Of a DNA stretch of 64,000 nucleotides, positions 6,554-32,711 are shown one piece after another. The DNA comes from an uncultured delta proteobacterium (GTDB lineage Bacteria > Desulfobacterota > Binatia > UBA9968): the NCBI GenBank assembly GCA_963771465.1, contig CAVYTU010000014.1:64001-128000 (forward strand). Direction: 5' to 3'. The notes under the pieces were generated by a model that saw only the letters and a program-made list of their open reading frames with translations, did not search any database and was not told where the DNA came from. Made by a program: the position numbers and the translations under genes. Position 1 is the stretch's first letter; each line of letters starts with the position of its first letter.

Positions 6554-7465
6554 TTGAAGATTCTCAGATTCAATGACGACCGCATCGGCGTCATCAAAGA
6601 TGGCAACATGGTCGTGGACGTGAGCGACACCGTGAGCGCCCGTAAGGCCAAAGGGCCGCAGCGCGTGATGGAAGAAATCATCGAGGGTTGGCGCAAATAC
6701 CGCAAGCGCTTTGAAAAAGTCCTGGCGGAGCAAAGCGGCGTGCCGCTCGACAGCGTGCAACTGCGCAGCCCGTTCGCCCGACCCGGCAAATTTCTCGCCG
6801 CGTTCAGCAACTACATCGACCGGCCGGAACGGACCGCTGATAATTTTCCCAACGAATATTTTTACAAATCTCCCGATCTCGTCGGTCCCGGCGAAGCCGT
6901 CGAATTGCGAGACATCCCCGCTTGCGTGGTGTATCAACCCGAAGCCGAATTTGCGTTCGTCATCGGTAAAACCGCCAAAGATGTGACCGAAAAGAAAGCC
7001 CTCGATCATGTTTTCGGTTATGTGCCGATGTTCGATATTTCCACCAGAGGTCTGACGCGGCGCACCCAGTTCATCGGCAAAGGGCAAGGATCGCACGGCT
7101 GCTGCGGCCCGTGGATCATCACCAAGGATGAAATCCCCGATCCGCACAATGTCGTCGTCAAGTCATGGACCAACGGTGAGCCGCGGCAAAACTACAACAC
7201 CAGTGCCATGGCGCATAAGCTGCCGAACCAGATCGCCTGGCTGTCGAAATTTCTCACCCTCAGCCCCGGCGATGTCGTCGCGACGGGAACTTTTCATGAA
7301 GGTCTGATGCCGGTCAACGTCGGCGACACCATCGAGATCGAATTCGAAAACATGGGCCGGGCGAAATTCAATATCAAAGGCAACAGCCCACGCAAAGACG
7401 TACCGTGGCTCCCCGGCAAAAACCAGCCAACGCCGCCGCCAGGCGGTGGCATGCATATCGTCTGA
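6554..7465 (+). CDS. Fumarylacetoacetate hydrolase family protein
   Basis: PEAEFAFVIG, DISTR, GPWIITKDE, TLSPGDVVATGT; GGAGGAG RBS before TTG at 6554. Confidence 0.88.
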   Translation: MKILRFNDDRIGVIKDGNMVVDVSDTVSARKAKGPQRVMEEIIEGWRKYRKRFEKVLAEQSGVPLDSVQLRSPFARPGKFLAAFSNYIDRPERTADNFPNEYFYKSPDLVGPGEAVELRDIPACVVYQPEAEFAFVIGKTAKDVTEKKALDHVFGYVPMFDISTRGLTRRTQFIGKGQGSHGCCGPWIITKDEIPDPHNVVVKSWTNGEPRQNYNTSAMAHKLPNQIAWLSKFLTLSPGDVVATGTFHEGLMPVNVGDTIEIEFENMGRAKFNIKGNSPRKDVPWLPGKNQPTPPPGGGMHIV

Positions 7466-7476
7466 GGAATGGGCCA

Positions 7477-7534
7477 ATGGAGTATTGGAGTGATGGAGTA
7501 CTGGGTTTCCGAATTCCCAACACTCCATTATTCC
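7477..7534. repeat. Octamer-periodic inverted repeat
   Basis: ATGGAGTA-TTGGAGTG-ATGGAGTA...CAACACTC-CATTATTC. Confidence 0.75.
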
Positions 7535-8295
7535 GTTCTTCTCGCCATTCCCCGCTGCCAGGGCAGTAACCACCGGACCACTAGATTAAAAAGCTGATTA
7601 AGGCTGTAGCCGAGCAGTGCTAAAGCCAGCATCCCCGCGTACATCTGGGCGACTTTGAAACGGCGCTGTGCGTCAAGGACGAAGTATCCGATGCCATCGG
7701 TGCTGCCAACCATTTCCGAGATCACCACGAGTATCAGCATGATCGGCAAACTGACACGCAGACCGGTGACGATCTGCGGCGAGCACGCGGGTAAAACCAC
7801 GTGCCAGATAATCTTACGTTGGGACAGACCAAATGTACGCGCAGTGTTAAGCAAAACCCAATCAAGGCCGCGCACGCCGTCGATGGTGTTCAGCAGGATT
7901 GGCCAGGCGCAGGAAAAAAAGATCACGAAAATTTTCATCTCATCGCCCAGACCGAAGAACAACAAGGCGACCGGGATCACCACCGGCGGCGGCACCGGTC
8001 GAAGCATTTCGACGACGACTTCGAGCAAGCGATAAATCCGTTGTGACAACCCCATTAAAATCCCCAATGGAATAAACACGGCGGCGGCGAGAAAATAACC
8101 CGCCGCGGCGCGTTTCATGCTGGCGAGAATTTGCCAAGGTATCTGTCCGGAAACAACCAACTCGGAGAATATTTTAGAAATCCTGCTCGGCGGCGGAATG
8201 ATCAACGCATTGATCCACTCGGTTTGCGCCAGGATCTCCCAGATAACCAGCAGTGCCAGCAGAAATAGCGGCCCAGTGAATTTCGCTGCCGCCAT
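7528..8295 (-). CDS. NitT/TauT-family ABC importer permease
   Basis: SsuC/TauC-like TM pattern, EAA-loop-like segment ARTFG...VVLP. Confidence 0.9.
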   Translation of the reverse strand: MAAAKFTGPLFLLALLVIWEILAQTEWINALIIPPPSRISKIFSELVVSGQIPWQILASMKRAAAGYFLAAAVFIPLGILMGLSQRIYRLLEVVVEMLRPVPPPVVIPVALLFFGLGDEMKIFVIFFSCAWPILLNTIDGVRGLDWVLLNTARTFGLSQRKIIWHVVLPACSPQIVTGLRVSLPIMLILVVISEMVGSTDGIGYFVLDAQRRFKVAQMYAGMLALALLGYSLNQLFNLVVRWLLPWQRGMARRTE

Positions 8296-13426: not shown

Positions 13427-14872
13427 TCATTTTTCGCAAAGAAAAAACTTCCTCCCAGCGGGAAACGATGGCGTGACCGTGACCAACCTAAAGTGCTGTT
13501 TCAGGCAACTTTCGACATCATCGGCGGTGTAATCATCAAGGTGAGGCACGACGCTGGCACCCATCTTTGGCTTAAGAGCGGTCACAAATTCCAACAATAG
13601 CCAGCGCTCGCCCAGCGCCGCAAAGTTCTCGCAGATACGCGCTATCGGCAGGCGCTGCGATGCCACCACATGGTGCACCACCGCTAGGCCCATGACCAGT
13701 TCACTCTTGAACCGTTCGATCGGTCCTGGGCAAGCAACCCCACCGCGGCCAGCTGTTGGTGCCGAGCTAAAGACATTGACCACGAGTGGCAAGATATTGA
13801 GCCCATCTGCGCACGCCGTCTCATAACAGAACGACAACGCCGCCGGATCCGCTTCGCATGCAGTCACGCGCGCTCCGCTTTTGGCGGCAACTGCAGAATA
13901 ATCGCCCGGTGTTGGCCCCTACGTCGAGCACACTGTTAGGGCTTCAGGTCGCTGAGTATTTTGCCGACCGCCTGGTGCTTCGAGTGCCAGTCGCCGGGCG
14001 ACAAATCGGTTTGGAAGTATTTCTGGTCGTGGCTTTCGTAGTAGCGCGCCCAATGACTAGTCCGATGGTTCAGCTTGAGGCTCTCGATATTTTTGCGTAG
14101 TGAAGCAAAAAACTTGAGCTTGAGTCTTCCTTGTCCTGGTCCGCTGTTGGCAGATTTGGAGATCGAGAGAAAACGTTGTTGCATGTCATCCGGCAAATGC
14201 TCAAAGAGTTTGCCCGCGACCTTTGGAATCGCCACACCGAGAGTGCGTCGCGGATGGCGCAGTTTGAAAGATGCCGGCAACGCGGCGAGCAAATCGCCAT
14301 CGCTGACACCGCCGAGATAATCGCGCATGAGCCAACGCGCGATGTGATCCGGCCCGCCGCATACAAGTACAAAGGAAAGAGAAAAAAATTGCAGAACTGC
14401 TGATACGGCGCCCACAAAATATCGTCCCGCGCCGGGACAATTGAGCCGGCATCAATATAGACCGGCTTTGTGCCGTCGAAAAGAACGTTCCACGGATGGC
14501 CGTCCTGAAGCGTCAGTCCGTGCTCGGCTAAGCGAATACAAAGATCGAGAGTCGCAGCGCTGCGTCTCTGCAGCATCGCCGGCGGCCATTCATAGCAGTA
14601 GGATTGCACCGCCACGCGGCGATGATGCAGCACGGCGTTACCTGCCTCAGTGGTAAAGCGGGTCAATTCGCTTTCGACCAACAGCCCATCGCGCACCAGG
14701 TCAGCGATCACGCCGAGCTCAGACCAATGTTTCCAGCGCGCCGCATATTCCGGCTCTAGCGCGCGATAAAGCTCACCGCGCCATTCAAACACCCGTCCAT
14801 TGGGATCGACGAAGGATTCGCTCAGCCAGCGCTGTTCTCTGCCGCAGGAATCGTCTCGTTGGAGTTCGCCAT
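13427..14872 (-). pseudogene. Class I SAM-dependent methyltransferase, frameshifted in this sequence (possibly by read errors)
   Basis: Reconstructed across frames: SFVDPNGRVF, SYCYEWP, LTLQDGHPWNVLF, VLDVGANTG (motif I), LAVVHH, LLLEF; about four frame changes, at least two in C/G homopolymers (~13937, ~13908). Confidence 0.75.
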
Positions 14873-15895: not shown

Positions 15896-18800
15896 ATGGC
15901 CAACGGCAACTACACTGAGACGCTCCGACAGCCTGGCTTTCTCGCCTTTTTCTGGACCCAGTTCTTGGGTGCGTTCAACGATAATTTTTTGAAGATCGTC
16001 GTCTCGTTCGTCGCCTTGAATCTGGCCACCAGCGCGAGCGCGAACTACGTCGAGCTGATCGCGTTTCTGTTCATTCTTCCGTCGGCGCTATTTTCCGGTT
16101 ACGCCGGCCATCTCGCCGACGTCTACAGCAAGCGGACTATTTTAGTCACGGTGAAGCTGTGGGAAATCGCCATCATGGTTTTTGCGCTCACGGCGTTTTT
16201 CTTTGGTCAGATTCAACTCATGTTGGGTGCAGTGTTCTTGATGGGGCTGCACGCCGCATTCTTCAGTCCGGCCAAGTACGGCATCCTGCCGGAGATGCTG
16301 CCGGAAAAAGATTTGTCGCGCGGTAATGGACTTCTGGAAATGAGCACCTTCATGGCGATCATTTTGGGCACGTCGCTCGGCAGCGCGATTTTTTCCGTCT
16401 GGAAATATAACTTGCCGCTGATCGGCCTGGTGATGATCGCCATCGCGGTCTTGGGCTATTGGACCAGCTTGGGAATCTCCCATGTTCCACCATCAGGCGC
16501 GGCGAAACTATTGCGGCTCAATCCGTTCAGCGAGATCGCCGACGGTCTGCGCCGTTTGCGTTCCGAGCGTCCGCTTTGGCTCACCGTGATCGGCATCTCT
16601 TATTTTTGGTTTCTCGGCGCGCTGGTCCAAATCAACATACTTTTCTTCGGCAAAGAACTGCTCCACCTGGACGAGTTTCACATCGGCCTGCTCGGCACCT
16701 TCCTCGCCATCGGCATCGGCATCGGCAGTCTCGCCGCCGGCCGGCTGTCGGGCGATCATATCGAATTGGGCCTGGTGCCGCTCGGATCAGTTGCCATGGG
16801 TCTCTGTCTAGCCTTGGTCGCATGGTCGGCACCGTCTTATCCGGCCACGGCACTCGCGCTCGTGCTTCTTGGTTTTTCCGCTGGACTCTTCGCTGTGCCC
16901 TTGAATGCGTTGTTGCAGCAGCGCAGCGGCAAGGAAGAAAAAGGCCAGCTGATCGCGACCAATAATTTCATGAACACCATCGGCATCGCACTCGCAGCGG
17001 CAACCCACTGGCTGCTTAAATCGCCGTTACAATTGTCGCCGGATACGATCATTTTGCTGATTGGCTTAATCACCCTCGGCGGCACTGTGATCATTCTCTA
17101 TCTGCTACCCGACTATTTCGTGCGCTTTGTCCTCTGGCTTATTACCCACACCGTCTATCGCATTCGAGTGGTCGGCGACGACAAGATCCCGCTTCACGGC
17201 CCCGCGCTTTTGATATCGAATCACGTCTCCTTCGTCGACGCGATCTTGATCGGCGCCTCGCTACCGCGCTTCGTCCGTTTCATGCTGCACCGGGAGTACT
17301 ATGATCGCAAATCGCTCAATTGGTTTTTCCGCCTGATGCGCTCGATCCCGGTTTCGGCCACCAATCGGCGCGATATCATCGAGTCGATCAAGCGCGCGCG
17401 CAACGAATTGGAAAAAGGCCACGCCGTTTGCATCTTCGCCGAGGGCGCGATCAGCCGCACCGGTCGCTTGCTGCCACTCAAACGGGGCTTTGAAAGGATC
17501 GTCGATGGCACCAACGTGCCGATCGTGCCGGTGCACTTGGACCAGCTATGGGGCAGCATATTTAGTTTCAAGAACGGCCGCTTCTTTTGGAAATGGCCGG
17601 GCAAGGCGCCCTATCCCGTGACGGTTTCATTTGGCGCGGCCTTGCCGCCGACCGCCACCGTGAATCAAGTGCGCAACGCAATTTTAGAATTGGAAAGCGA
17701 AGCGGTGGAATACCGGCGCAGCGCCAGCGATCTGTTGCACACCAAATTCGTCGCAATGGCCAAGCGCCGTTGGCGCTCGTTCTGCATGGCCGATACCACG
17801 GGCACGGAACTGACCTATGGAAAAACTCTCATCGCCAGCCTCTTGTTCGCGCGCTGGGTGCGGACCCATTGCCCCAATCAGGCCATGGTCGGCGTGATGC
17901 TTCCGGCCACGGTCGGCGGCTCGCTGGTCAATATCGCAATCTTGTTCGCCGGCAAAGTGCCGGTCAATTTGAATTTCACTTCCGGCGCCGAGGCGATGAC
18001 CGCGGCCATCGCCCAATGCAAGATCAAGACGATCATCACTTCCGAGGCTTTCTTAAGTAAAGCCAATCTCGAAACCATGGAAGGCATGGTTTTCGTCGAA
18101 CAGATTCGCAGCTCGTTTACCGAAGCTCAGAAATTGACGACCGCCGCGAAAGCCTTTCTGATGCCGGCGCTCTGGTTGAACCGCCGCGCCGTCAAACAGC
18201 AACGTCCCCACGATCTGGCGACGATCATTTTTTCCAGCGGCAGCACGGGAACGCCTAAAGGCGTCATGCTGTCACACCACAACATTATTTCGAACATTGA
18301 AGGGATACGCCAGGTGATCCACTTCACGCCGAGCGATCGGATCATGGGCGTATTGCCGCTGTTTCATTCCTTTGGCTTTACCGCCACGCTCTGGTTGCCG
18401 CTGCTCGCCGGCTTTGGCGCCGTTTATCATCCCAATCCGACGGACGCCAAGACCATCGGCGAGACCGTGCAGAAATATCGAGCGACTTTGCTGATCAGCA
18501 CGCCGACTTTTTTTGTCAGCTATTGGCGCCGCTGCAGCAAGGAAGAATTTGCCAGCTTGCGCTATGTCATCGCCGGCGCGGAAAAACTGCGCGAGCAAAT
18601 CGCCAAAGGCTTTCAAGAAAAATTTGGCCTGACCATTCTCGAAGGCTACGGCTGTACCGAACTGGCGCCGGTGGTCGCGGTCAACACGCCCGATGTTACC
18701 GACGGCAAGGAAAAACAGGTCGGCCACAAGCCCGGCACCGTCGGCCACCCGATTCCCGGGGTCGCCGCCAAAGTCATCGATCCCGACACCGGACAGCCGC

Positions 18801-19288
18801 TGGGGCCTGGCGAAGAAGGACTCTTATTGATCAAAGGCCCCAATGTCATGCTCGGCTATTTGAACCAGGGAAGTCTCACCGACCAGGTCATGCGGCGCGG
18901 CTGGTACGTCACCGGAGATATCGTGGCGATCGATGAAGACGGCTTTATCAAGATCACCGATCGCCTATCACGCTTCAGCAAGATCGGCGGCGAAATGGTA
19001 CCGCACATGAAAGTCGAAGAGGCGATCAACGAGGTGCTTGGCAGCGCCGTATCCGTGGTCACCGCCCTGCCCGACCCGCAGCGCGGCGAGAAACTCGTCG
19101 CCTTTTACACCCAGAACGGTTTCAGTCGAGACGTCCTGTGGAGCAAGCTCAATCAAACCGAGCTGCCCAAACTATGGATCCCCAAACGCGAAAATATCCA
19201 CGCCATCGACGCCATCCCGATCCTCGGCTCGGGCAAGGCCGACCTCAAAAAAGTCAAAGCGATGGCGCTGGAACGCGCGGCGAGCTAA
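15896..19288 (+). CDS. aas: LplT-Aas fusion: MFS lysophospholipid flippase + acyltransferase + acyl-ACP synthetase
   Basis: TQFLGAFNDN and FSPAKYGILPE (LplT); NHVSFVD and FAEG (PlsC); FSSGSTGTPKG, EGYGCTE, YVTGD (AMP-binding). Confidence 0.93.
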   Translation: MANGNYTETLRQPGFLAFFWTQFLGAFNDNFLKIVVSFVALNLATSASANYVELIAFLFILPSALFSGYAGHLADVYSKRTILVTVKLWEIAIMVFALTAFFFGQIQLMLGAVFLMGLHAAFFSPAKYGILPEMLPEKDLSRGNGLLEMSTFMAIILGTSLGSAIFSVWKYNLPLIGLVMIAIAVLGYWTSLGISHVPPSGAAKLLRLNPFSEIADGLRRLRSERPLWLTVIGISYFWFLGALVQINILFFGKELLHLDEFHIGLLGTFLAIGIGIGSLAAGRLSGDHIELGLVPLGSVAMGLCLALVAWSAPSYPATALALVLLGFSAGLFAVPLNALLQQRSGKEEKGQLIATNNFMNTIGIALAAATHWLLKSPLQLSPDTIILLIGLITLGGTVIILYLLPDYFVRFVLWLITHTVYRIRVVGDDKIPLHGPALLISNHVSFVDAILIGASLPRFVRFMLHREYYDRKSLNWFFRLMRSIPVSATNRRDIIESIKRARNELEKGHAVCIFAEGAISRTGRLLPLKRGFERIVDGTNVPIVPVHLDQLWGSIFSFKNGRFFWKWPGKAPYPVTVSFGAALPPTATVNQVRNAILELESEAVEYRRSASDLLHTKFVAMAKRRWRSFCMADTTGTELTYGKTLIASLLFARWVRTHCPNQAMVGVMLPATVGGSLVNIAILFAGKVPVNLNFTSGAEAMTAAIAQCKIKTIITSEAFLSKANLETMEGMVFVEQIRSSFTEAQKLTTAAKAFLMPALWLNRRAVKQQRPHDLATIIFSSGSTGTPKGVMLSHHNIISNIEGIRQVIHFTPSDRIMGVLPLFHSFGFTATLWLPLLAGFGAVYHPNPTDAKTIGETVQKYRATLLISTPTFFVSYWRRCSKEEFASLRYVIAGAEKLREQIAKGFQEKFGLTILEGYGCTELAPVVAVNTPDVTDGKEKQVGHKPGTVGHPIPGVAAKVIDPDTGQPLGPGEEGLLLIKGPNVMLGYLNQGSLTDQVMRRGWYVTGDIVAIDEDGFIKITDRLSRFSKIGGEMVPHMKVEEAINEVLGSAVSVVTALPDPQRGEKLVAFYTQNGFSRDVLWSKLNQTELPKLWIPKRENIHAIDAIPILGSGKADLKKVKAMALERAAS

Positions 19289-19500
19289 CTCCGATTAAGC
19301 TGTGTTGATCGAGGTGTGACCCTGGAGGAACGAAGGCAGCGGCGCGAATGTTTCATTTTGTGCTCCAAGCTCGGCACGATGCTTGACCTTTGCGCTGCTG
19401 ATCTCATGAGCAACTCGCCGCGCGTGCATCTTCAAGGCACACTGCTTTGCCTTCGTTCCGGAAGGGTTGCGCCTCGATCGAAGTTTCACACAAATACGGG
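19289..19500 (+). mobile_element. MITE-like repeat, copy 1
   Basis: Homologous to 21421-21673 and 30017-30257; flanked by CTAA/CTAA; internal 32-bp inverted repeat at 19307-19338 / 19448-19479. Confidence 0.75.
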
Positions 19501-19559
19501 CTAACACCGACAATGAATTTCATGCCAAGCGACCACCGCGGAGCGTAGGAGCTAAGCCA

Positions 19560-21420
19560 ATGATATCGACAGCGGAAATCCGCGCCGTATATGAACACGC
19601 AACGACCGAGTTTATCGAGGCGCGTGAGTTCCAAGTGCTGGTTTCCGGCCGAGCGTCGGGAGATTTTGTCCGTCAGTTTTTACTCAACGTTTTTCGCACG
19701 CATTATCTGTCGGCCCATATCGTCGCGCTTTGCTTCGCGGCGCTGCCGTCCAATGCGGCGGCGCTGTTGAAAGAAAATCTCCTCGAAGAAATGGGCCACT
19801 CCGCAGACGAGCCACCCCATTCGGCGTTGTTGCTCAAGCTCGCTGAAGGTATCGGCTGTTCGCCGCAGGAAATTGACAAACTCATCGACGACGCGCGCCG
19901 CCGGGTTGCGGTCTTTTGTGCCACTCGAGTGCCGTTGGCCACCCTGCGTGAAATCTGTCTCGCCGTGCTGCTGGAAACGCTCTCCTTTGAGTTCATGCTG
20001 TCGCGCTGCTCGGGACAAATCGCCACGGCTTTACGCGAGCACTACGGCGTCGCCAAAGCGGCGCTCAAGTGGTTTGAGCTTCACTCCGAAGTGGACATTC
20101 GCCACGCCGAGGAAGGGCTGACGGTGATCGAAGACTACCTCGCGTTTCATCAGATCGGTGATCCGACCTTCGACCTCATCCAGCGTGCGGCTCTTGGCAA
20201 AGTCTTCAGCAAGCATTATTTCCCGGCCGAGGAGCGCGCTTTTGCTTTGCCCGTCGAAAGCAAGAACGCGTCACGCATCGAGGCGATCACCATCTATAAA
20301 CTGAAAATTCCATTTCATCAGGCCTTTCATCACGCCACCCAGCGCCGCGAGGAAAGCGACGCAGTGATCGTGCGGATCAAAGACGCCAGCGGGCAGATCG
20401 GTTACGGCGAAGCGCTGCCGCGTCCCTACGTCACCGGCGAAACCACCGCATCGATGATCGCTCATCTGCGCGGACGGCTGGCGCCGCAGATTTTCGCTCC
20501 CACATGGGTCGCGGGTTGGGCGACCTTCGAGCTTCTCGACTCCTGTCGCGCCGAGTGGACGCGAAGTCATGACAGCGCGGTCAGCGCTTGGAACGCGGCG
20601 TTTTGCGCCGTCGAATTGGCATTGCTCGACTGGAGTTTGAAAAGTCTCAGCCACTTCGCTGTCCGCATTCCTGCCACCGGCACGAAACCAAGTCATCTAC
20701 AGCGGCGTCATTTCTTCCGACAATCCAGCGGAAGCAGCGGCGTTGGCCAAGCGAATGGTCAAATTTGGTTTGCGTCAACTCAAGATCAAAGTCGGCACAT
20801 CGGACGACTACGACCGGGTCGCCGCGGTGCGCCAAGCCGTAGGGCCGGAAGTCGCATTGCGCGCCGATGCCAATGGCGCCTGGAGCGCGGCGCAAGCGGT
20901 CGAGGAATTGCACCGGCTCAAGCCTTTTAACTTACAAGTGATCGAACAACCGGTGCCGCCAGGCGATCTCGCTGGAATGAGAAAAGTCCGAGCGGAAACC
21001 GGCCTGCCGGTGATGGCCGACGAGTCGCTCGTGACCATCGAGCAAGCGCGCCATCTGATCGACGCGCGCGCCTGCGACTATTTCAACATACGCCTGTCCA
21101 AGTGCGGCGGCGTCACCGGCAGCCTGGCGATCGCCAAACTCGCCGCGCAAGCCGGCATCAAAATCCAGGTCGGCGCACAGGTCGGCGAGACGGCGATCCT
21201 TTCCGCCGCCGGCAGGACCTTTGCCGCTCATTTGCCGACGCTCGCGTTCGCCGAGGGTTCCTTCGGCACCTGGTTATTAAGCGAAGACATCGCCTTCGAA
21301 GACGTGAGCTTCGGTTACGCCGGCGTCGCGCCACTGCTCGCAAGCCGCGGCCTCAGCGTGACGGTCAAAGACGAAACCTTGGAACGGCTTGCCGTCGAAA
21401 AGATCGAGCTCAGTCGCTAG
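19560..21420 (+). CDS. Heme-oxygenase-like di-iron oxidase (CADD/PqqC-like) fused to an enolase-superfamily (MLE/dipeptide epimerase-like) domain; one +1 frameshift at 20640-20643
   Basis: ENLLEEMG...PPH and WFELHSEVDIRH; then GYGEALPRPYVTGET, KIKVG, RADANGAW, IEQP, MADES, NIRLSKCGG; removing one A from AAAA at 20640-20643 joins the two ORFs; AGGAG RBS. Confidence 0.8.
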
Positions 21421-21673
21421 CCCGGACTATTCATGCCACGAGGAAACCTGACGACACTCTGTTATCGAGGTGCGACCCCAAAGAACCAAAACGTCGGACG
21501 AGGGCAGGGGCGCGAATGTTTCATTTTGTGCTCGGCACTCGGTACGATGTTTAACCTTTTCCCTGCTGATCTCATTAGCAAGTTGTCCCGCGTGCATCTT
21601 CAAGGCACAGCTGCTTTGCCTTCGTTCCGGAGGGGTTGCACCTCGATCGTAGTTTTGCCGCGAATAATTCGCG
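21421..21673 (+). mobile_element. MITE-like repeat, copy 2
   Basis: CTAG-CCCGGACTATTC ... GAATAATTCGCG-CTAG imperfect terminal inverted repeats; shared core. Confidence 0.78.
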
Positions 21674-21683
21674 CTAGGCGGTT

Positions 21684-23372
21684 ATGACGTTGGCCCACCG
21701 CGCCGCGCTCTTGCTGAGCGGCCTTCAATGGAATCGCTGGGAGCGCCAAACACGCGATCCGGCTGCCGCGCAAAAACAGCTACTGCGAGAAATCGTTCAG
21801 CGCAATCAATCCACCGCCTTCGGCAGAGATCACGGCTTTAGCTCGATCAAAAGCGTCAAAGATTTCCGCCGCCAGGTGGCGATCGGCGATTATGAAAGTT
21901 TTCGGCCTTATATCGAGCGCGCCAAGCAAGGTGAAAAAGCAGTGCTGACCAGCGAGCCGATACTGATGTTCACCATGACCAGCGGCAGCACCGGCGAGCC
22001 GAAGTTGATCCCCGTAACCGAATCGACGCGTGCGACCCATACCAGACTGACGCGACTTTGGTACAGCCGGGCGTTCCAAGATCATCCGGGGTCGGGTGCG
22101 GGAAAAGTTTTCGGGCTGGTGGGCCGAATGGTCGAAGGGCACACCGCCGGTGGTATCCCCTACGGTGCGGCGTCGGGCCTGATTTATCAATCCAGCCCGG
22201 CTTGGATCAAACGCACGCACGCGCTGCCTTATGAAATCGCCGAGATCAAAGATTTCCAAACCAAGTATTACGCCGCGATGCGGGTCGCCATCGAACAGGA
22301 TGTCACCTTCCTGGGCACGCCCAATCCGAGCACGATACTTCGGCTCGTCGAAACTGCCGATCATTTTCGCGCGGAGATTATCAAAGACATACACGACGGC
22401 AGCTTGTCGAATCGTATTGAATTGGCGGGGGATGTTCGACTGGCGTTGGCGAAATATTTATCGCCGAACCGACAGCGTGCGCAACAATTGGAACAATCGC
22501 TGGCGGGGACCGGACGGCTTCGTCCCATCGACTACTGGCCCCATTTGCGGCTCATCGGTTGCTGGAAAGGTGGCAGCGTCGGCGTTCGTCTCAAAGAATT
22601 GGTCGCTTGGTTCGGCAACCAAGTGCCGGCACGTGACCTCGGCTACATGGCCAGTGAGGCGCAGATGTCGCTGCCGGTGAGCGACAGCGGTTCGGCTGGT
22701 ATTTTAGCGGTCGATGGGAATTTTTATGAGTTCATCCCAGAGTCGGAAATCGCCAGCGCCCATGCCATAGCGCTTGGCTGCGACGAGCTTGAATCAGGCG
22801 GCGTGTATTATCCGATCCTCACCACCGCCGCCGGTCTCTATCGCTACGACATCAACGACGTGATCCGTGTCACCGGCTTTCACGGCAAAACTCCGTTGGT
22901 GGAATTCCTCCGCAAAGGTCGCGATGTCACCAACATCACCGGCGAAAAATTGCACGTCAATCACGTGATCCAGGCGATGGAACAGGCTCAACGCGCCACG
23001 GGCGCCGTGGTGCGGCACTTTCGCGCTTTCGCGGACATGGAAAATTCCCGCTATGCCTTCATGGTTGAGTGCGACGGCGCTAAGGCCAACGACGCAACAC
23101 TCAGCCATTTACTCGCCGAACTGGACGCGTGCCTGTTCGAGATCAATGTCGAATATGCCGATAAACGAAAATCGGCGCGACTCCAAGCGCCCGTACTCTG
23201 CGTCATGAAACACGGCTGGTATGAGCGCAAGGCCGCTGTTGCGCTCCACGCTGGCGCGCGCGACGTCCAGTTCAAAGCGCAGCTGTTGAGCGTCATACCG
23301 GAAGATCCGAGCGAGATCATGGCGCTGTTACAAAATTCGAACTCTGCTGATATCTCCAAAAGACACGATTGA
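21684..23372 (+). CDS. GH3-family acyl-adenylate-forming amide synthetase
   Basis: TAFGRDHGF, TSGSTGEPKLIP, GYMASEA, FYEFIP, GLYRYDINDV, ITGEKL. Confidence 0.9.
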   Translation: MTLAHRAALLLSGLQWNRWERQTRDPAAAQKQLLREIVQRNQSTAFGRDHGFSSIKSVKDFRRQVAIGDYESFRPYIERAKQGEKAVLTSEPILMFTMTSGSTGEPKLIPVTESTRATHTRLTRLWYSRAFQDHPGSGAGKVFGLVGRMVEGHTAGGIPYGAASGLIYQSSPAWIKRTHALPYEIAEIKDFQTKYYAAMRVAIEQDVTFLGTPNPSTILRLVETADHFRAEIIKDIHDGSLSNRIELAGDVRLALAKYLSPNRQRAQQLEQSLAGTGRLRPIDYWPHLRLIGCWKGGSVGVRLKELVAWFGNQVPARDLGYMASEAQMSLPVSDSGSAGILAVDGNFYEFIPESEIASAHAIALGCDELESGGVYYPILTTAAGLYRYDINDVIRVTGFHGKTPLVEFLRKGRDVTNITGEKLHVNHVIQAMEQAQRATGAVVRHFRAFADMENSRYAFMVECDGAKANDATLSHLLAELDACLFEINVEYADKRKSARLQAPVLCVMKHGWYERKAAVALHAGARDVQFKAQLLSVIPEDPSEIMALLQNSNSADISKRHD

Positions 23373-23797
23373 ATCCGTCCATGCACGGTCCCGTCCTCGC
23401 CCTGCTGACACTCCTCTTCGCGCTCCGTGTTTTGGGTCAAGCACTCGTCGCGTTTGTCGGCGTTGCTTGGTTGCCAGTCATGGAACAATGGTTTTCCGGA
23501 CTGATTCCCTACCCAACACTTCTCATGATCCAACTCCTCATGCTCATTCTCATGGTGAAAATCACCGGCGAAATCTGGCGCGGCGTAGGCACATTCGCCA
23601 TCCGACGGCCGCACTGGTCACAGTTTTTAATAAGATTTAGCGCCGTCTACGCCGGCGCCATGGTCTTGCGCTATGTTTTGACGATGATTTTACATCCGGA
23701 GAAGCGCTGGCTCGGGGATGTCATCCCAATCATTTTTCACTTCGTGCTGGCAGGGTTCATATTCGTGCTCGGCCACTATCATCGACGCGCACGCTGA
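23369..23797 (+). CDS. Small integral membrane protein (about 4 TM), unknown function
   Basis: Hydrophobic ORF overlapping the GH3 stop by 4 nt; SGLIPYPTLL, IPIIFHFVLA. Confidence 0.7.
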   Translation: MNPSMHGPVLALLTLLFALRVLGQALVAFVGVAWLPVMEQWFSGLIPYPTLLMIQLLMLILMVKITGEIWRGVGTFAIRRPHWSQFLIRFSAVYAGAMVLRYVLTMILHPEKRWLGDVIPIIFHFVLAGFIFVLGHYHRRAR

Positions 23798-23848
23798 TTG
23801 CATGGGCATACATCGCGTGTTAGAAACTTGCTAGTTTTGGAGGATGAA

Positions 23849-24829
23849 ATGGATTTCCAGCAACTGGCGGACAAAGCACTCAACGGCATACTTCCCGAGC
23901 GGGATGAATTGAAAGCAATTCTCAACGCGCCGGACGAACAACTGCCGGAGATATTGAGCGCGGCCTTTAGAGTGCGCCATCACTATTACGGCAAGCGCGT
24001 GCAAATTCATGTCTTGCAGAATGCCAAGAGCGGCTTGTGTCCGGAGGACTGCCACTATTGCTCGCAATCCTCGGTCTCCGAAGCGCCCGTCGAGAAATAT
24101 CCTTTCATGTCCAAAGAGAAATTGGTGGAAAACGCCAGACAGGCCAAAGCCGCCGGCGCCGTGCGCTTTTGCATCGTCAACAGCGGCCGCGGCCCGACCC
24201 ATAAAGAAATCGACGAGATCGCCGACGCCGTGCGCGAGATCAGATCACAAACCGGGATGAATGTTTGCTGCTCGCTCGGCTTGATGAACGAAGACAAGAC
24301 GCAGAAACTAGCGGCCGCCGGCGTCGGCAGGGTCAATCACAATTTGAACACCAGCCGGGAGCGCCACGCCGAGATCGTCACCACTCACACCTACGACGAC
24401 CGCTTGGCGACGATTGAAAGCGTCAAGAGCGCCGGAATCGGCACTTGTTCTGGTGGGATTATCGGCATGGGCGAGAGCGACGACGACATTATCAACCTGG
24501 CGATGACGTTGCGCGCCATGGATATCGACTCGATCCCAGTGAATTTTCTGAACTCGATCCCCAAGACGCCGTTCGAACAAAAGCGCGAACTCACCCCGCA
24601 GCGCTGTTTGAAAACCCTCTGCCTGTTTCGTTTCGTCAATCCAGGCAAAGAAATCCGCGTCGCCGGCGGCCGTGAAGTCAATCTGCGATCGCTGCAGCCG
24701 CTGAGCCTATATCCGGCGAACTCAATGTTCGTCAACGGATATCTCACGACGCCCGGCCAAGACGCTAGCGACGCCCATCAAATGATCCGCGACTTGGGCT
24801 TCGAGCTCGATCAGCCGGCGGCGATCTAG
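23849..24829 (+). CDS. bioB: Biotin synthase
   Basis: CPEDCHYCSQS radical-SAM motif, NHNLNT, CSGGIIGMGE, SIPVNFL, YLTT; GGAGG RBS. Confidence 0.95.
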   Translation: MDFQQLADKALNGILPERDELKAILNAPDEQLPEILSAAFRVRHHYYGKRVQIHVLQNAKSGLCPEDCHYCSQSSVSEAPVEKYPFMSKEKLVENARQAKAAGAVRFCIVNSGRGPTHKEIDEIADAVREIRSQTGMNVCCSLGLMNEDKTQKLAAAGVGRVNHNLNTSRERHAEIVTTHTYDDRLATIESVKSAGIGTCSGGIIGMGESDDDIINLAMTLRAMDIDSIPVNFLNSIPKTPFEQKRELTPQRCLKTLCLFRFVNPGKEIRVAGGREVNLRSLQPLSLYPANSMFVNGYLTTPGQDASDAHQMIRDLGFELDQPAAI

Positions 24830-24887
24830 GCACAGGTGTGACCGAGAATTAAAAGCGCCCTTTAAACGCAACTCCAAGGAGACTACC

Positions 24888-25397
24888 GTGCGATATGTTA
24901 TCTTTCTCGTCACACTTCTAACAACCGTCAGCGCTGCATCGGCGGCATCGTTCGATGCGCCGAAGCGGAAATCCGGTTTGTGGGAAATCAAAATGTCGAA
25001 TGCCGCTGCCCAGGGCACAACCATGCAGCAGTGCATCGACCAAAGCACCGACGACTTGATGAAGAATAATATGGCGGGAATGGAGAAGCCATCTTGCTCG
25101 AAAAACGAGATGCGCCGCGATGGCGGCAAGATCGTCTCCGAATCCGTCTGTAAGGTCGGCGCCAGCACTGCTACGACCCGCGCGGTTTTTACCGGCCAAT
25201 TCGACACGGCATACAAGGCGGATATCAAGAGCACGTATGAACCGCCGCTTCACGGCATGAAAGAGTCGACATCCGTACTTGACGCGAAATGGCTAGGAGC
25301 GTGTAAGCCGGGACAAAAAGCCGGCGACATTTCGATGCCCGGCATGCCGAATATGAACATGAACGACATGATGAAGAAGCTGCCGAAGCAGCCCTGA
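24888..25397 (+). CDS. Exported DUF3617-like protein
   Basis: Signal peptide; RKSGLWEI...QQCID...AKWLGAC. Confidence 0.75.
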   Translation: MRYVIFLVTLLTTVSAASAASFDAPKRKSGLWEIKMSNAAAQGTTMQQCIDQSTDDLMKNNMAGMEKPSCSKNEMRRDGGKIVSESVCKVGASTATTRAVFTGQFDTAYKADIKSTYEPPLHGMKESTSVLDAKWLGACKPGQKAGDISMPGMPNMNMNDMMKKLPKQP

Positions 25398-30016: not shown

Positions 30017-30257
30017 GCCGGATGCATTCAGGCTACGGGGAAACCTGACGACACGGGTTGATCGAGGTGTGACCCTGGAGGAACGAAGGCACCGGCGCGA
30101 ATGTTTCATTTTGAGCTCAGCGCTGGGCACGATCTTTGACCCTTTCGCCGCTGATCCATTCGCAAGTCGCCCGCATGCAATCTTCAAGGCACAACTGCTT
30201 TGCCTTCGTTCCGGAAGGGTTGCACCTCGATCAACGTTTTACCGCGCATAATCCGGG
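30017..30257 (+). mobile_element. MITE-like repeat, copy 3
   Basis: Same core as copies 1 and 2; right end ATAATCCGGG-CTAG overlaps the stop of the 817-aa gene; left end degenerate. Confidence 0.75.
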
Positions 30258-32711
30258 CTAGAAGGTTTTCAAGAATTCGATCAACGCGCGCTTGTCGTCA
30301 TCGCTCAACGCCTGCGTTTCCTTGGAAAAGCCAGTGCCAAAGTAATGACCTTTATTGGCGACGAAGTCAGGGCACTTGCTCACTTTCAACAGATCGGGAA
30401 CCAATCCCTTAAATACTTCGGCTGCCTCCTTTTCGCTCTTGCCCTCAACCGCCTTGAGATCAGCTTTCATCCTCAGCAGCAACTTACCCAGATCGAGCTT
30501 GTTGGTATCGAGGTCGATGTTGGTCAACAAGTTCACCGGCGTCCCTTTCGGGATCGGGCCGATCTGAATTCCCTCTTCGCTGAAGAGCCAGGGAAACCAG
30601 CGGTTCAGCCAGCCGCCCCAGCTCAGCATTTTTTCCAGCAGCGGCGAGACGAAACCGGGCGCGACTTTGATATAGCTGGTTTCGGTCGTGCGAAAGATGA
30701 ATCCTGGCACCTTGTCGCCGAGAATCGGATCTTTGTCGCGTTTCTCCGGCCAGAGCATTTTCTCGATGGAGTCGTTAAACGAATCCAGACGGGAATCCAC
30801 CGACGGATTCGCGTTGAACTTGCCCACGGAGTTATTTAACAGAAACGGCGCCGTCGACCACAAGCTGATCAACGACGGCACGCGTGTATAGCCACGGCCG
30901 CCGGCGGGCATGTCATATTCCCAAGGACTGCCGTCGATGGGGTTATGCACGGTGAGCTTGCCCACCGACGGCAGGTCTTTATAAGTCTGCGACGAAAAAT
31001 TGTCCCAGATATTGCCGCCGAGCGCGTTGGTCGCTAGCGGGCTGCACGCGTTGGTCTGCAACAGCGTCACCGGGATGCGCCGCTCGGTGGACAGATAATT
31101 GTCGGCGAGAAAATCATCGGCCATGACCATGTCCGTCATCTTCTTTTTGAAGTCGTCGGTCTTGGTCCAGCCCCAGTATTGATCCCAGTTCTTGTCGTCC
31201 ACTCCGGCCGGCGCATCGGGAATCTTGCTCGAATGGCAACGCGCGCAGTTCTCGGCGAATACTACCTTGCCGCGAGTCAGCTGGGCTTTATCCTTGGATA
31301 GATGCTTTTCCCCGCCGGGCGCGTCCTTCAGCGAGTCGGGCTTGGCGGTCTTGAGAAAGAACAGCGCGACATCCGGCGTCTGTTCCTGTGTGGCGTTCCA
31401 GTAGCTGGAGTTCTTGTTGGCGTCGGCGATCTTGATCGGCGTGACTTTCTGGCCGCCCACCAGCGCGTTGAAATGAAGCAGCCATTCTTCGCTGAACAGG
31501 CCGATGTTAATATAGACTCGGTTCAAGGCGCCGAGTATCCCCACCGAGTCGGCGCCGTCTTTTAATACATGCGCCGTCCAGACTTTGTCCGGCTCTTTGA
31601 AATACTGCGACAGCGCCGCAGTGCGTTTGTAGTGCTGGAACTGTTTGTTATCGCGGCCGCCGCCGGCCAATGTTTCTTCGCCCCAACGTTCGGCGATCTT
31701 GAGCCGCGCGCCGACGTTATAAACCGCGTTCATGGTGCGCGGGTTGTTAATATAATCCGTCGATACAAACGAGGTGTCGAGCGTGCCCGGCAACGAAGTA
31801 TGGATCAGCTGGTAGATGAAATTCGCCGGGTCGTTTTCCCAAAACAGCACGCGGTCCACCCAAAAATATTGCGACCCGGGATTGGAATTGATGTTTTCCC
31901 ACTTGGGATTTTCCGGGTTCTCCGGCGGTTTCACCGGGCTTGGACCGACATGGCAAAAGCCGCAGGACATGCCGACACGATAGGGACGAACCAAATCTTT
32001 CTGGCCGTAATACTTCGGGTCGGTGTAAAATTTCTCCGCATCCCATTTCTTTTGCGCCGCCTCGTCGAAATCCGGGTTGGGAAACAAACGCAAACCGACG
32101 ATCCCGGTGGCGTAACCGTAATAAGAACCCACCGGCAGATTCTTGCCGCGCGCGCCGATCTTCACGCCGGGATACTTTTGCTCGTTCTCGAACGGATCGG
32201 CCGGGCAATCCTTGCCGCGCGTGTCGAGCCACAAACCGAACCGATCGGAACGCGGCCCGTTCGCCTTCTCGAAGCAGGGCTCGTTGACGACGCCGAGATA
32301 TTCCCAGCGTTTGTCGCGAGTCAGATGCGGCATCTTGGGGTGTGACGAGATAATTTTTAATAGATCGACGACACCGAAACTCTTGTTGACCAAGTGATCC
32401 CAGAAGCGATCGTTGCCGCCGCTCCAAACGATCCAGTTATTGCGTCCTTTGACCTCGTCGGCGGTCAGCGCAACGCCGCCGTCCATGGCTTTGAAATAAT
32501 CCTCGTCGGCCGCCGGAAAACTTTTCGCGTCGCGCCCGACTACGAGCGCTTCATCCTTCACAGTGCCAAACTCCGGCTTAGACTTACCGCATCCGGTGAC
32601 AGCCACAATCGCCAGAAAAAACAGCCAAGCTGCCGACAATCGTAAATTCATCGTCCCCAAACTCCTTCCCATACGTCGGTTCCCCATCACGGTCGAAAGC
32701 GATTTATTCAA
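30258..32711 (-). CDS. Large di-heme c-type cytochrome (RoxA/MauG-superfamily-related), probable lipoprotein
   Basis: CGFCH and CARCH; SLWSTAPFLLNNSVG; GHYFG...LIEFLKTF; lipobox-like AVTGC (start may be 32651). Confidence 0.8.
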   Translation of the reverse strand: MNKSLSTVMGNRRMGRSLGTMNLRLSAAWLFFLAIVAVTGCGKSKPEFGTVKDEALVVGRDAKSFPAADEDYFKAMDGGVALTADEVKGRNNWIVWSGGNDRFWDHLVNKSFGVVDLLKIISSHPKMPHLTRDKRWEYLGVVNEPCFEKANGPRSDRFGLWLDTRGKDCPADPFENEQKYPGVKIGARGKNLPVGSYYGYATGIVGLRLFPNPDFDEAAQKKWDAEKFYTDPKYYGQKDLVRPYRVGMSCGFCHVGPSPVKPPENPENPKWENINSNPGSQYFWVDRVLFWENDPANFIYQLIHTSLPGTLDTSFVSTDYINNPRTMNAVYNVGARLKIAERWGEETLAGGGRDNKQFQHYKRTAALSQYFKEPDKVWTAHVLKDGADSVGILGALNRVYINIGLFSEEWLLHFNALVGGQKVTPIKIADANKNSSYWNATQEQTPDVALFFLKTAKPDSLKDAPGGEKHLSKDKAQLTRGKVVFAENCARCHSSKIPDAPAGVDDKNWDQYWGWTKTDDFKKKMTDMVMADDFLADNYLSTERRIPVTLLQTNACSPLATNALGGNIWDNFSSQTYKDLPSVGKLTVHNPIDGSPWEYDMPAGGRGYTRVPSLISLWSTAPFLLNNSVGKFNANPSVDSRLDSFNDSIEKMLWPEKRDKDPILGDKVPGFIFRTTETSYIKVAPGFVSPLLEKMLSWGGWLNRWFPWLFSEEGIQIGPIPKGTPVNLLTNIDLDTNKLDLGKLLLRMKADLKAVEGKSEKEAAEVFKGLVPDLLKVSKCPDFVANKGHYFGTGFSKETQALSDDDKRALIEFLKTF

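Follow-up and report, generated by a model that had tools for sequence, protein, structure and literature searches.

GH3-dependent synthesis of N-acyl amino acids in bacteria was published in 2025, and in the OlsH-OlsI pathway of Singulisphaera acidiphila a small gene cluster is headed by such a bacterial GH3 (PMC12493201). OlsH uses a free fatty acid, ATP and ornithine to form N-acyl ornithine, which means that a bacterial GH3 can form an N-acyl amino acid from a free fatty acid without acyl carrier protein (ACP) or coenzyme A (CoA), as set out in the available sections of the same paper (PMC12493201). Here we describe a gene cassette at positions 19560–23797 of a 64,000-nt stretch of DNA, hereafter the window, which comprises positions 64,001 to 128,000 of the forward strand of contig CAVYTU010000014.1 (assembly GCA_963771465.1) from an uncultured delta proteobacterium of soil. 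The cassette encodes a heme-oxygenase-like diiron oxidase (HDO) domain fused to an enolase-superfamily domain, a GH3 acyl-acid amido synthetase and a small membrane protein. To our knowledge, OlsH is the only characterised bacterial GH3, and the cassette would be a second, chemically richer bacterial GH3 pathway.

The superfamilies to which the components belong are well known, but their pairing is unusual, and the cluster is widely conserved. Members of the HDO family such as CADD, HrmI, UndA and FlcD share with the window domain the heme-oxygenase-like (HO-like) helical fold and a pattern of three histidines and three carboxylates. SznF-type HDOs are likewise fused to a second domain (PMC7848743). 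In the window clade, the partner instead belongs to the enolase superfamily or, in a single representative, is a crotonase domain; neither partner is described in the literature searched, and the available text of PMC7848743 mentions only cupin fusions. A full-text literature search turned up no description of an HDO-enolase fusion or of a cluster of HDO with GH3, which agrees with the original prediction, made from the letters of the window, that no pathway with this combination had been described; the supplementary cluster tables of PMC7848743, which lie outside its available text, may list the clade.

Both HDO enzymes and the enolase superfamily serve as models of how enzyme chemistry diversifies, and here the two are found in a conserved physical pairing whose enolase half lacks one of the two catalytic bases. 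The cassette is common in soil metagenomes and offers a direct route to a metabolite of groups of which few or no members are in culture. With three soluble enzymes, one fusion and intact alleles available, it would also serve well as a clean test of function discovery.

Conservation and physical coupling of the three enzymes

All features of the cassette lie on the forward strand. The HDO domain (19560–20249, ~225 aa, PF14518) is followed in frame by a linker and the N-terminal capping domain of the enolase superfamily (20250–20648), and then, past a single extra base at 20648, by the enolase-superfamily barrel in the +1 frame (20650–21420, MR_MLE_C). As a consequence, the open reading frame (ORF) starting with ATG 19560 (19560–20930) carries the PF14518 region and continues as nonsense sequence past the frame break, while a second frame holds an ORF with the barrel at 20743–21420. 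A dispersed repeat of 263 nt (21421–21683) is inserted between the fusion gene and the intact gene of the 562-aa GH3 (21684–23372), and the gene of a 142-aa four-helix membrane protein, TM142, comes last (23381–23797). In the following, G000 denotes the genome of the window, L-numbers denote loci, P-numbers proteins and X-numbers public sequencing runs.

With the 364 in-frame residues as the query, 588 homologues at E ≤ 1e-3 were found among the 8000 candidates scored. Among the 120 best homologues, 112 are 599–633 aa long and contain both PF14518 and PF13378, the other eight being the window's own cluster, fragments and one chimera. The neighbourhoods of 26 species-representative genome loci were then compared, and in each of the 23 that are long enough to show it, GH3 begins ~10 nt downstream of the fusion. 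In order to avoid circularity, metagenome contigs were searched with an alignment of eight stand-alone HDO proteins only, which returned 80 loci. An enolase follows HDO in 56 of the 57 loci with at least 1300 nt downstream, as a fusion in 40 and as a separate adjacent gene in 16; GH3 follows the enolase/HDO in 32 of the 33 with at least 3200 nt downstream, and the membrane protein is present in 14 of the 26 with at least 4600 nt. Both the fusion and the adjacency of GH3, on which the original prediction depended, are hence conserved beyond the window.

In two loci labelled Chloroflexota (L024 and L025), HDO is a separate gene of 234 aa, and in L025 its TGA stop codon overlaps the ATG of the enolase gene (ATGA). 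That two proteins are fused in some lineages and encoded by separate adjacent genes in others is a classic indication that they are functionally coupled. For HDO and the enolase as separate proteins, a complex model built from alignments made in this analysis gave an ipSAE of 0.83 in three of three runs, against 0.20 for the best of three controls; this mark is reached by 58 of 80 solved complexes and by 2 of 110 mismatched pairs. The predicted interface brings HDO residues 116–129 and 200–234 against residues 12–18, 154–163 and 331–351 of the enolase. The contacts agree by at least 91%, the predicted local distance difference test (pLDDT) of the partners is at least 90, and the C-terminal helices of HDO touch the N-terminus of the enolase, matching the topology of the fusion. 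The model thus supports binding between the separate HDO and enolase proteins. Taken with the neighbourhoods, the HDO-enolase-GH3 trio is almost certainly a real functional unit.

The cassette is accessory and patchy in its distribution. In a sample of 201 genomes of the phylum searched with a profile of the whole fusion, only G000 matched the HDO part; outside G000, the matches were to the enolase part alone (40 of 201 genomes), with profile positions 1–219 uncovered among the matches listed. A profile of HDO found matches in six of 151 genomes of the class, four of them strong, namely G000 itself, a congener with an open frame of 628 aa, another genus (675 aa) and a separate-gene form in another family. 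The cassette is also present in records under the labels Binatia, Chloroflexota (Limnocylindria, Dehalococcoidia and Tepidiformaceae) and others. Contigs from an RNA library (X15) cover the HDO, GH3 and membrane-protein genes with 0–2 differences, a hint that the cassette is transcribed, with DNA carry-over being possible.

The diiron oxidase domain

The HDO domain matches PF14518 (Haem_oxygenas_2, the heme-oxygenase-like 'iron-containing redox enzyme' family) with 62.8 bits against a cut-off of 28.9. The predicted ligand motifs E-E-x(9)-H and H-xxx-D-xx-H are located at E76-E77-x9-H87 and H175-x3-D179-x2-H182, and together with one further glutamate they make up the three-His/three-carboxylate pattern of HDOs (E..H; E; HxxxD/ExxH), the helices being assigned from the motif pattern. 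The proposed metal ligands are E77 (19788–19790), H87 (19818–19820), E144 (19989–19991), H175 (20082–20084), D179 (20094–20096) and H182 (20103–20105). All six are invariant in 19 sequences, the separate-gene forms of Chloroflexota included, and also in 14 separate-gene forms. For the carboxylate of core helix 2, the alignment makes E144 more likely than E139, since the former is invariant whereas the latter is a glutamine in the Chloroflexota forms.

An AlphaFold model of the domain, computed with the alignment of 19 sequences, is all-helical with a pLDDT of 85.5 and a predicted TM-score of 0.85. In a Foldseek search of the PDB, which gave five matches at E ≤ 0.001, the best match of this model is CADD (1rcw/8va9; E 7e-6, TM-score 0.67–0.72), after which come HrmI, a TenA homologue, PqqC, UndA and HmuO, with FlcD also listed. 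By this model, the N-terminal domain has the HO-like fold that had been proposed for it. The domain is only 13–19% identical to any solved member of the family (19% to CADD), and its clade is small, with 122 clusters at E ≤ 1e-3 among 1.84 billion representatives. One protein in the representative library (P0190, 572 aa) has an HDO of the same clade, 29% identical, fused behind an enoyl-CoA hydratase/isomerase (crotonase) domain, and its sequence hints that the combination of an enolate maker with an HDO may be a general design.

An enolase-superfamily domain without the second lysine

The barrel matches MR_MLE_C with an E-value of 3e-52 (177.9 bits against a cut-off of 29.4). At the segment of the capping domain, the read-through homologues carry PF02746, and residues 240–360 of P0009 align with 3jva, 2p88 and 1jpm in HMMER. 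In the numbering of P0002, the KxK motif consists of K14 and K16 (20782–20790, in LKIKVG), and the Mg ligands are D42 (20866–20868), E68 (20944–20946) and D93 (21019–21021). The segments LKIKVG, ADAN, IEQP and MADES align with the same segments of 3jva, 2p88 and 1jpm and are invariant in our alignments of the fused (A1) and separate (A7) forms. The domain thus has the cap and barrel, the KxK of strand 2 and the D/E/D Mg2+ ligands of the muconate lactonizing enzyme (MLE) subgroup of the superfamily. Its closest solved sequences by profile are the dipeptide epimerases 3jva, 1jpm (YkfB) and 3q45 and the Bacillus cereus racemase 2p88, with E-values of 1e-53 to 1e-50.

In dipeptide epimerases, the second catalytic base is the lysine of the ...NIK... 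segment, which stands where strand 6 ends. In the window domain this lysine is replaced by an arginine, Arg117 of P0002 (21091–21093, in NIRLSK), and in HMMER alignments with three PDB epimerase/racemase sequences the arginine falls exactly on the lysine of ...NIK.... The original prediction had already described a barrel which keeps KxK and D/E/D and has Arg in place of the second Lys, and the alignments with solved structures bear this out. The arginine is invariant in 21 fused forms (R511, A1) and in 13 separate forms (R271, A7), and it is also present in five stand-alone relatives from the phylum of the window. As judged from these alignments, it is a trait of the family and not a lesion. 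Because the residue that defines two-base epimerases is absent, we do not assign the domain to the epimerases or racemases. KxK, D/E/D and the ...SKCGG... segment of dipeptide epimerases and N-succinyl amino acid racemases do align column for column with the window domain, which differs from them by its invariant arginine and by its fusion or coupling to an O2-activating domain. Furthermore, the DxD ammonium-binding motif of dipeptide epimerases presumably is replaced in the window domain (segment AEGSFG).

Stand-alone enolases of the Arg type were seen in other settings. In L118 (5432–7815) and L120 (5281–7798), they lie next to genes of FadL/TodX outer-membrane transporters. In L122 (5323–9310), an Arg-type enolase follows an alpha/beta-hydrolase gene (PF12146) and is divergent from a GH3 of the cassette type, with no HDO; by analogy, the hydrolase and enolase with GH3 recall the pairing of OlsH with OlsI. 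An ORF of 734 aa in L122 was considered as a new fusion and rejected, because its first 350 residues do not resemble the HDO profile and are low-complexity sequence from a frame that stays open through GC-rich DNA; the gene that really lies upstream is that of the alpha/beta-hydrolase.

The GH3 ligase

The product of 21684–23372 is the full GH3 protein that had been expected, with the three Pfam domains of the family over its full length (PF03321 with 246.9, GH3_M with 72.0 and GH3_C with 55.8 bits, against a cut-off of 23.6 for each). Its best match in the PDB is JAR1 (E 3e-38), aligned over residues 18–551. The three nucleotide-binding motifs are defined in AtGH3.11 as SSGTSQGRPK, YGSSE and GLYRYRLGD, according to the available text of PMC12493201. 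Compared by eye, the window GH3 has TSGSTGEPK, GYMASE and GLYRYDIND at these places, and hence keeps the nucleotide motifs of the GH3 family. The plant GH3s (JAR1, GH3.5/6/8 and GH3.12/PBS3) have the same three-domain Pfam architecture and JAR1 aligns over the full length, whereas the window enzyme is bacterial and encoded in an operon with an oxidase-enolase.

The only NCBIfam match of the window GH3 is OlsH (NF052613, lyso-ornithine lipid synthetase), with 115.5 bits against a cut-off of 620. Three other cassette GH3s also have OlsH as their only NCBIfam match, and the scores of cassette GH3s other than that of the window are 98–124 bits. By these sequence scores the enzyme is a relative of OlsH and not its equivalent. 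The OlsH-OlsI system and the window thus have the three nucleotide motifs of GH3 in common, but the window has no alpha/beta-hydrolase of the OlsI type, and the partner of its GH3 is the diiron-oxidase-enolase protein. No GH3 from Binatia, Chloroflexi or delta-proteobacteria is present in the 69-sequence tree of the OlsH paper, as far as the available part of that paper goes (PMC12493201).

The frame break in the fusion gene

Intact homologues of 619 aa read LKSL[T/D]TSLSAF at the junction, which places the extra base of the window in AGTCT[C]AGCC near 20648. The original prediction of a single homopolymer slip was right about the single frame break but not about its place, as the AAAA run at 20640–20643 is not the site. 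Contigs of four public runs (X1, X2, X4 and X15) were compared with the window over 19300–23800, those of X2 and X15 lying outside position 20648. A 448-nt contig of X1 is identical to the window except that base 20648 is left out, and a contig of X4, which comes from a different study, leaves out the same base. When the base is removed, the frame continues with homologue-like sequence. The intact allele is thereby present in data from two other soil studies.

The fusion gene is otherwise free of stop codons and additional frame breaks, and its catalytic residues are all retained. A methyltransferase-like gene on the minus strand of the window (13430–14837) has three frame changes relative to its relatives of 474 aa (e.g. 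L012:4186-5610), two of them within 40 nt, which suggests local consensus indel errors in the assembly. Similar breaks occur in cassettes of other long-contig assemblies; the GH3 of L008, for example, is split into two ORFs. In our judgement, the extra base is a good deal more likely to be an assembly (consensus) error than a real lesion at the strain level. Whether error or lesion, it does not reflect decay of the family, given that 112 of the 120 best homologues are intact and the intact allele is found in two soil data sets. Elsewhere, in three independent cases (L026:10001-11211, P0032 and P0207), an HDO fragment runs straight into the C-terminal region of GH3, and both the enolase barrel and the N-terminus of GH3 are deleted; these are decayed remnants of the cassette or assembly chimeras.

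The small membrane protein and the neighbouring genes

The membrane protein most likely starts at ATG 23381, 8 nt past the stop codon of GH3, because its homologues and the Atlas record begin there. It had been described as a translationally coupled protein with about four transmembrane segments; the predicted model does contain four long helices (pLDDT 87.2), but the two genes are closely spaced with a gap of 8 nt and do not overlap. Conserved motifs are seen in 23 homologues. Pfam and NCBIfam gave no match for the protein, the Atlas gave only 'hypothetical protein' clusters, and the best E-value in a Foldseek search of the PDB with the model was 2.5; a wide VIA-align search ended at generic helical bundles (best Z 6.5), below the level that is meaningful for helical proteins. 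The gene follows GH3 in 19 of the 22 genome loci with room for it, so that the protein is a frequent but not universal part of the cassette.

Upstream of the cassette and outside its conserved core, on the same strand as had been noted, lies the gene of an LplT (major facilitator superfamily)-acyltransferase-acyl-ACP synthetase fusion of the Aas type (15896–19288, 1130 aa). It has the Pfam domains MFS_1, Acyltransferase and AMP-binding and passes the NCBIfam equivalog NF006386 with 1400.3 bits against a cut-off of 1221. Downstream, likewise outside the core and on the forward strand, is the biotin synthase gene bioB (23798–24829; TIGR00433, 399 bits against a cut-off of 225). The two genes flank the cassette in most loci labelled Binatia or delta-proteobacterium, though not in all. 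In 18 of 26 genome loci, aas precedes the cassette; it is absent upstream in L008, L015 and L025 and 5.5 kb away in L003, where aas adjoins bioB and the cassette is ~4 kb distant. There is no bioB beside the cassette in L008, L015, L024 and L025, so that L008 and L015 have neither flank, and the Chloroflexota loci and most separate-gene loci lack both genes. The two flanks therefore are mainly lineage synteny. A link with biotin was rejected on the same ground, since cassettes without bioB and bioB genes without an adjacent cassette both occur.

In another family of the class of the window, a separate-gene cassette is found downstream of an LplT-Aas paralogue with 40% identity (L117, G221:C25). 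This locus runs on the minus strand from 12727 to 3377 and consists of the LplT-Aas paralogue, ~2 kb of ORFs, the membrane protein, HDO, the enolase and GH3, with the membrane-protein gene upstream of the HDO gene instead of downstream of the cassette. The presence of the paralogue there favours a real link with lipids.

A gene of the leucine-carboxyl-methyltransferase family (PF04072) directly follows GH3 in L059 (9560–10591), L065 (4615–5559) and L098 (9573–10484), and is divergent upstream in L025 (8904–9797, minus strand). The cassettes that contain it have HDO and the enolase as separate genes and lack the small membrane protein. Its position after GH3 fits a product with a free carboxylate. 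Different from this, the gene after that of the membrane protein in L008 (14154–15146), L015 (14247–15233) and L006 (4622–5083) encodes a class IV aminotransferase. These loci belong to one sub-lineage, in which the cassette lacks the aas and bioB flanks except in L003; in L003, with aas and bioB present, the aminotransferase gene (6787–7779) is upstream of the cassette. Being confined to these four loci, the aminotransferase was rejected as a core member.

Proposed pathway and its alternatives

By analogy with characterised relatives, we see an even chance that the cassette is a conserved three-enzyme biosynthetic module which makes a modified N-acyl amino acid, either oxidised or subjected to an elimination. 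The identities of the domains, their ligand and catalytic residues, the conservation of the trio and a complex model in favour of binding are shown by the analysis, whereas the substrates, the chemistry, the sequence of the steps and what the membrane protein does are inferred. OlsH is a precedent for the idea of an acyl-amino-acid or lipid product. A lipid context is in keeping with LplT-Aas upstream of the cassette in most genome loci and, as a paralogue, in L117, with the FadL/TodX genes next to stand-alone Arg-type enolases and with the gene pair of L122. In the proposed pathway, GH3 would adenylate a free carboxylic acid, most likely a fatty acid or a derivative of one, and join it to an amino acid to give an N-acyl amino acid. 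The enolase domain would then bind the free alpha-carboxylate of this molecule via Mg2+, and a lysine of KxK would remove the alpha-proton. Given that the lysine of the opposite face is an invariant arginine, the domain probably is not a two-base racemase, and more likely would form an enolate for elimination or hand-over; the fusion of an enolate-forming crotonase to an HDO of the same clade in P0190 fits this idea. The diiron domain would oxidise the same molecule with O2, by hydroxylation, desaturation or oxidative decarboxylation, and HDO and the enolase would act as one physical unit, whether fused or as a complex of two proteins. Where present, the membrane protein probably handles the lipophilic product at the membrane, and in other lineages the carboxyl methyltransferase may deal with the product. 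A bolder version, which we put forward tentatively and think rather unlikely to hold, is that HDO and the one-base enolase form an enolisation-coupled oxygenase, in which the Mg2+-stabilised enolate of the N-acyl amino acid would be passed directly to the O2-activated diiron site. If this is true, it would be a machine of an undescribed kind, it would yield a lipoamino acid in a dehydro, alpha-oxidised or oxidatively decarboxylated form, and a new class of membrane lipid or signal would be made by many uncultured soil bacteria labelled Binatia, Chloroflexota and delta-proteobacterium.

A number of observations weigh against the proposed pathway. The clades of HDO, Arg-type enolase and GH3 are without a characterised member, and all assignments of substrates are made by analogy. 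The low score against OlsH speaks against an equivalent of that enzyme, and with plant JAR1 as the best solved relative, the acid need not be a plain fatty acid. With regard to the lipid connection, aas is absent from the Chloroflexota loci and from other separate-gene metagenome loci, so that the aas link drawn by the original prediction is weaker than stated; the FadL genes are convergent with the stand-alone enolase genes and not co-oriented, the case with the alpha/beta-hydrolase is a single locus (L122), and the membrane protein is missing in 12 of the 26 metagenome loci with room for it. In one locus (L113, the sole exception in both metagenome counts), the HDO gene has neither enolase nor GH3 downstream. 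Finally, an independent public assembly shares the frame break, and remnants with internal deletions are found elsewhere (L026, P0032 and P0207). Because of the shared break and these remnants, the cassette must be regarded as dispensable, and it may really be broken in this strain.

The last point leads to the reading that the cassette is a pseudogene in this strain, with a real insertion, the barrel not made and the pathway inactive here, while the family is functional elsewhere. We regard this as unlikely, yet as a reading to be taken seriously. The second public assembly (a contig of 108,711 bp; P0008) encodes the same truncated product of 456 aa with an identical out-of-frame tail and three amino acid differences, and its GH3 is called from Met199 only. 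The remnants with large internal deletions in other lineages, the two repeat copies that invaded both flanks of the fusion gene, and the patchy occurrence of the cassette, with HDO matches in so few genomes of the class, point in the same direction. On the other side stand the otherwise identical X1 contig and the X4 contig, both without the extra base, the remainder of the gene with its kept catalytic residues and no further break, the neighbouring gene with three frame changes in 1.4 kb, which is typical of consensus error, and the comparable breaks in other long-contig assemblies. It is distinctly less probable that the module, rather than building lipids, modifies or inactivates a carboxylic acid that comes from outside or acts as a signal, for example a hormone-like acid, an aromatic one or a product of ring cleavage; the diiron domain and an MLE-like cycloisomerase or eliminase would then transform the acid, and GH3 would conjugate it with an amino acid, in the way known from plant GH3s for jasmonate, auxin or benzoates. 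The best solved relatives of GH3 are indeed JAR1, indole-3-acetic acid-amido synthetases and GH3.12, and genes of a glucose/sorbosone-dehydrogenase-like protein and a laccase-like Cu-oxidase_4 protein are nearby in the window. The enolase part also matches the muconate cycloisomerase model TIGR02534, but its 152.7 bits are below the cut-off of 334.95, and among solved enolases the closest relatives epimerise or racemise N-blocked amino acids and are not cycloisomerases. Moreover, genes for ring cleavage or aromatic pathways are not among the conserved neighbours of the cassette, the only conserved extras being the membrane protein and the gene of the carboxyl-methyltransferase family.

We give little credence to a true N-acyl-amino-acid epimerase, in which the second proton transfer would fall to another residue instead of the lysine, the product would be a D-amino-acid lipid or conjugate, and the diiron domain would be an independent tailoring hydroxylase. 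The closest solved relatives, dipeptide epimerases and N-succinyl amino acid racemase, would suit this proposal, and so would the class IV (D-amino-acid/branched-chain) aminotransferase after the membrane protein in L008, L015 and L006 and nearby in L003; yet in place of the opposite-face base that defines two-base racemisation in this branch, fused, separate-gene and stand-alone forms alike have an invariant arginine, and the aminotransferase is limited to one sub-lineage. Least credible of all is a role in the synthesis of a vitamin or cofactor, either of a biotin precursor or by a CADD-like or PqqC-like route to an aromatic cofactor. That bioB directly follows in many loci and that CADD is the nearest solved fold could be taken in its favour, but bioB is missing from the cassettes of the four genome loci named above and from separate-gene metagenome loci, and in L003 it stands beside aas with the cassette elsewhere. 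The identity with CADD is 19%, the match to the CADD family model TIGR04305 is weak (31 bits against a cut-off of 200), and bio, pab and pqq genes other than bioB show no conserved association with the cassette.

Dispersed repeats around the fusion gene

Two copies of a dispersed repeat on the same strand bracket the fusion gene. The repeat is ~160–260 nt long with inverted arms of 16–35 nt, and thus resembles a miniature inverted-repeat transposable element (MITE). The copy between the fusion gene and GH3 (21421–21683) has 37 matches with 71–87% identity across the contigs of G000, and relatives lack this spacer and have ~10 nt between the two genes. The copy between aas and the fusion gene (19330–19486, forward strand, G000:C14:83330-83486) is 87% identical to it and has its inverted arms at 19307–19338 and 19448–19479. 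An excess of contig depth is seen over the stretch 19330–19486. Contig joints at 19300–19480 and 21460–21590 were considered as a deletion of the gene; this was rejected, and the joints are attributed to the repeat copies. Rfam gave zero matches at E ≤ 1 in a search of 19000–25000, a region that includes both copies. A third copy of the repeat is present in the window at 30026–30267.

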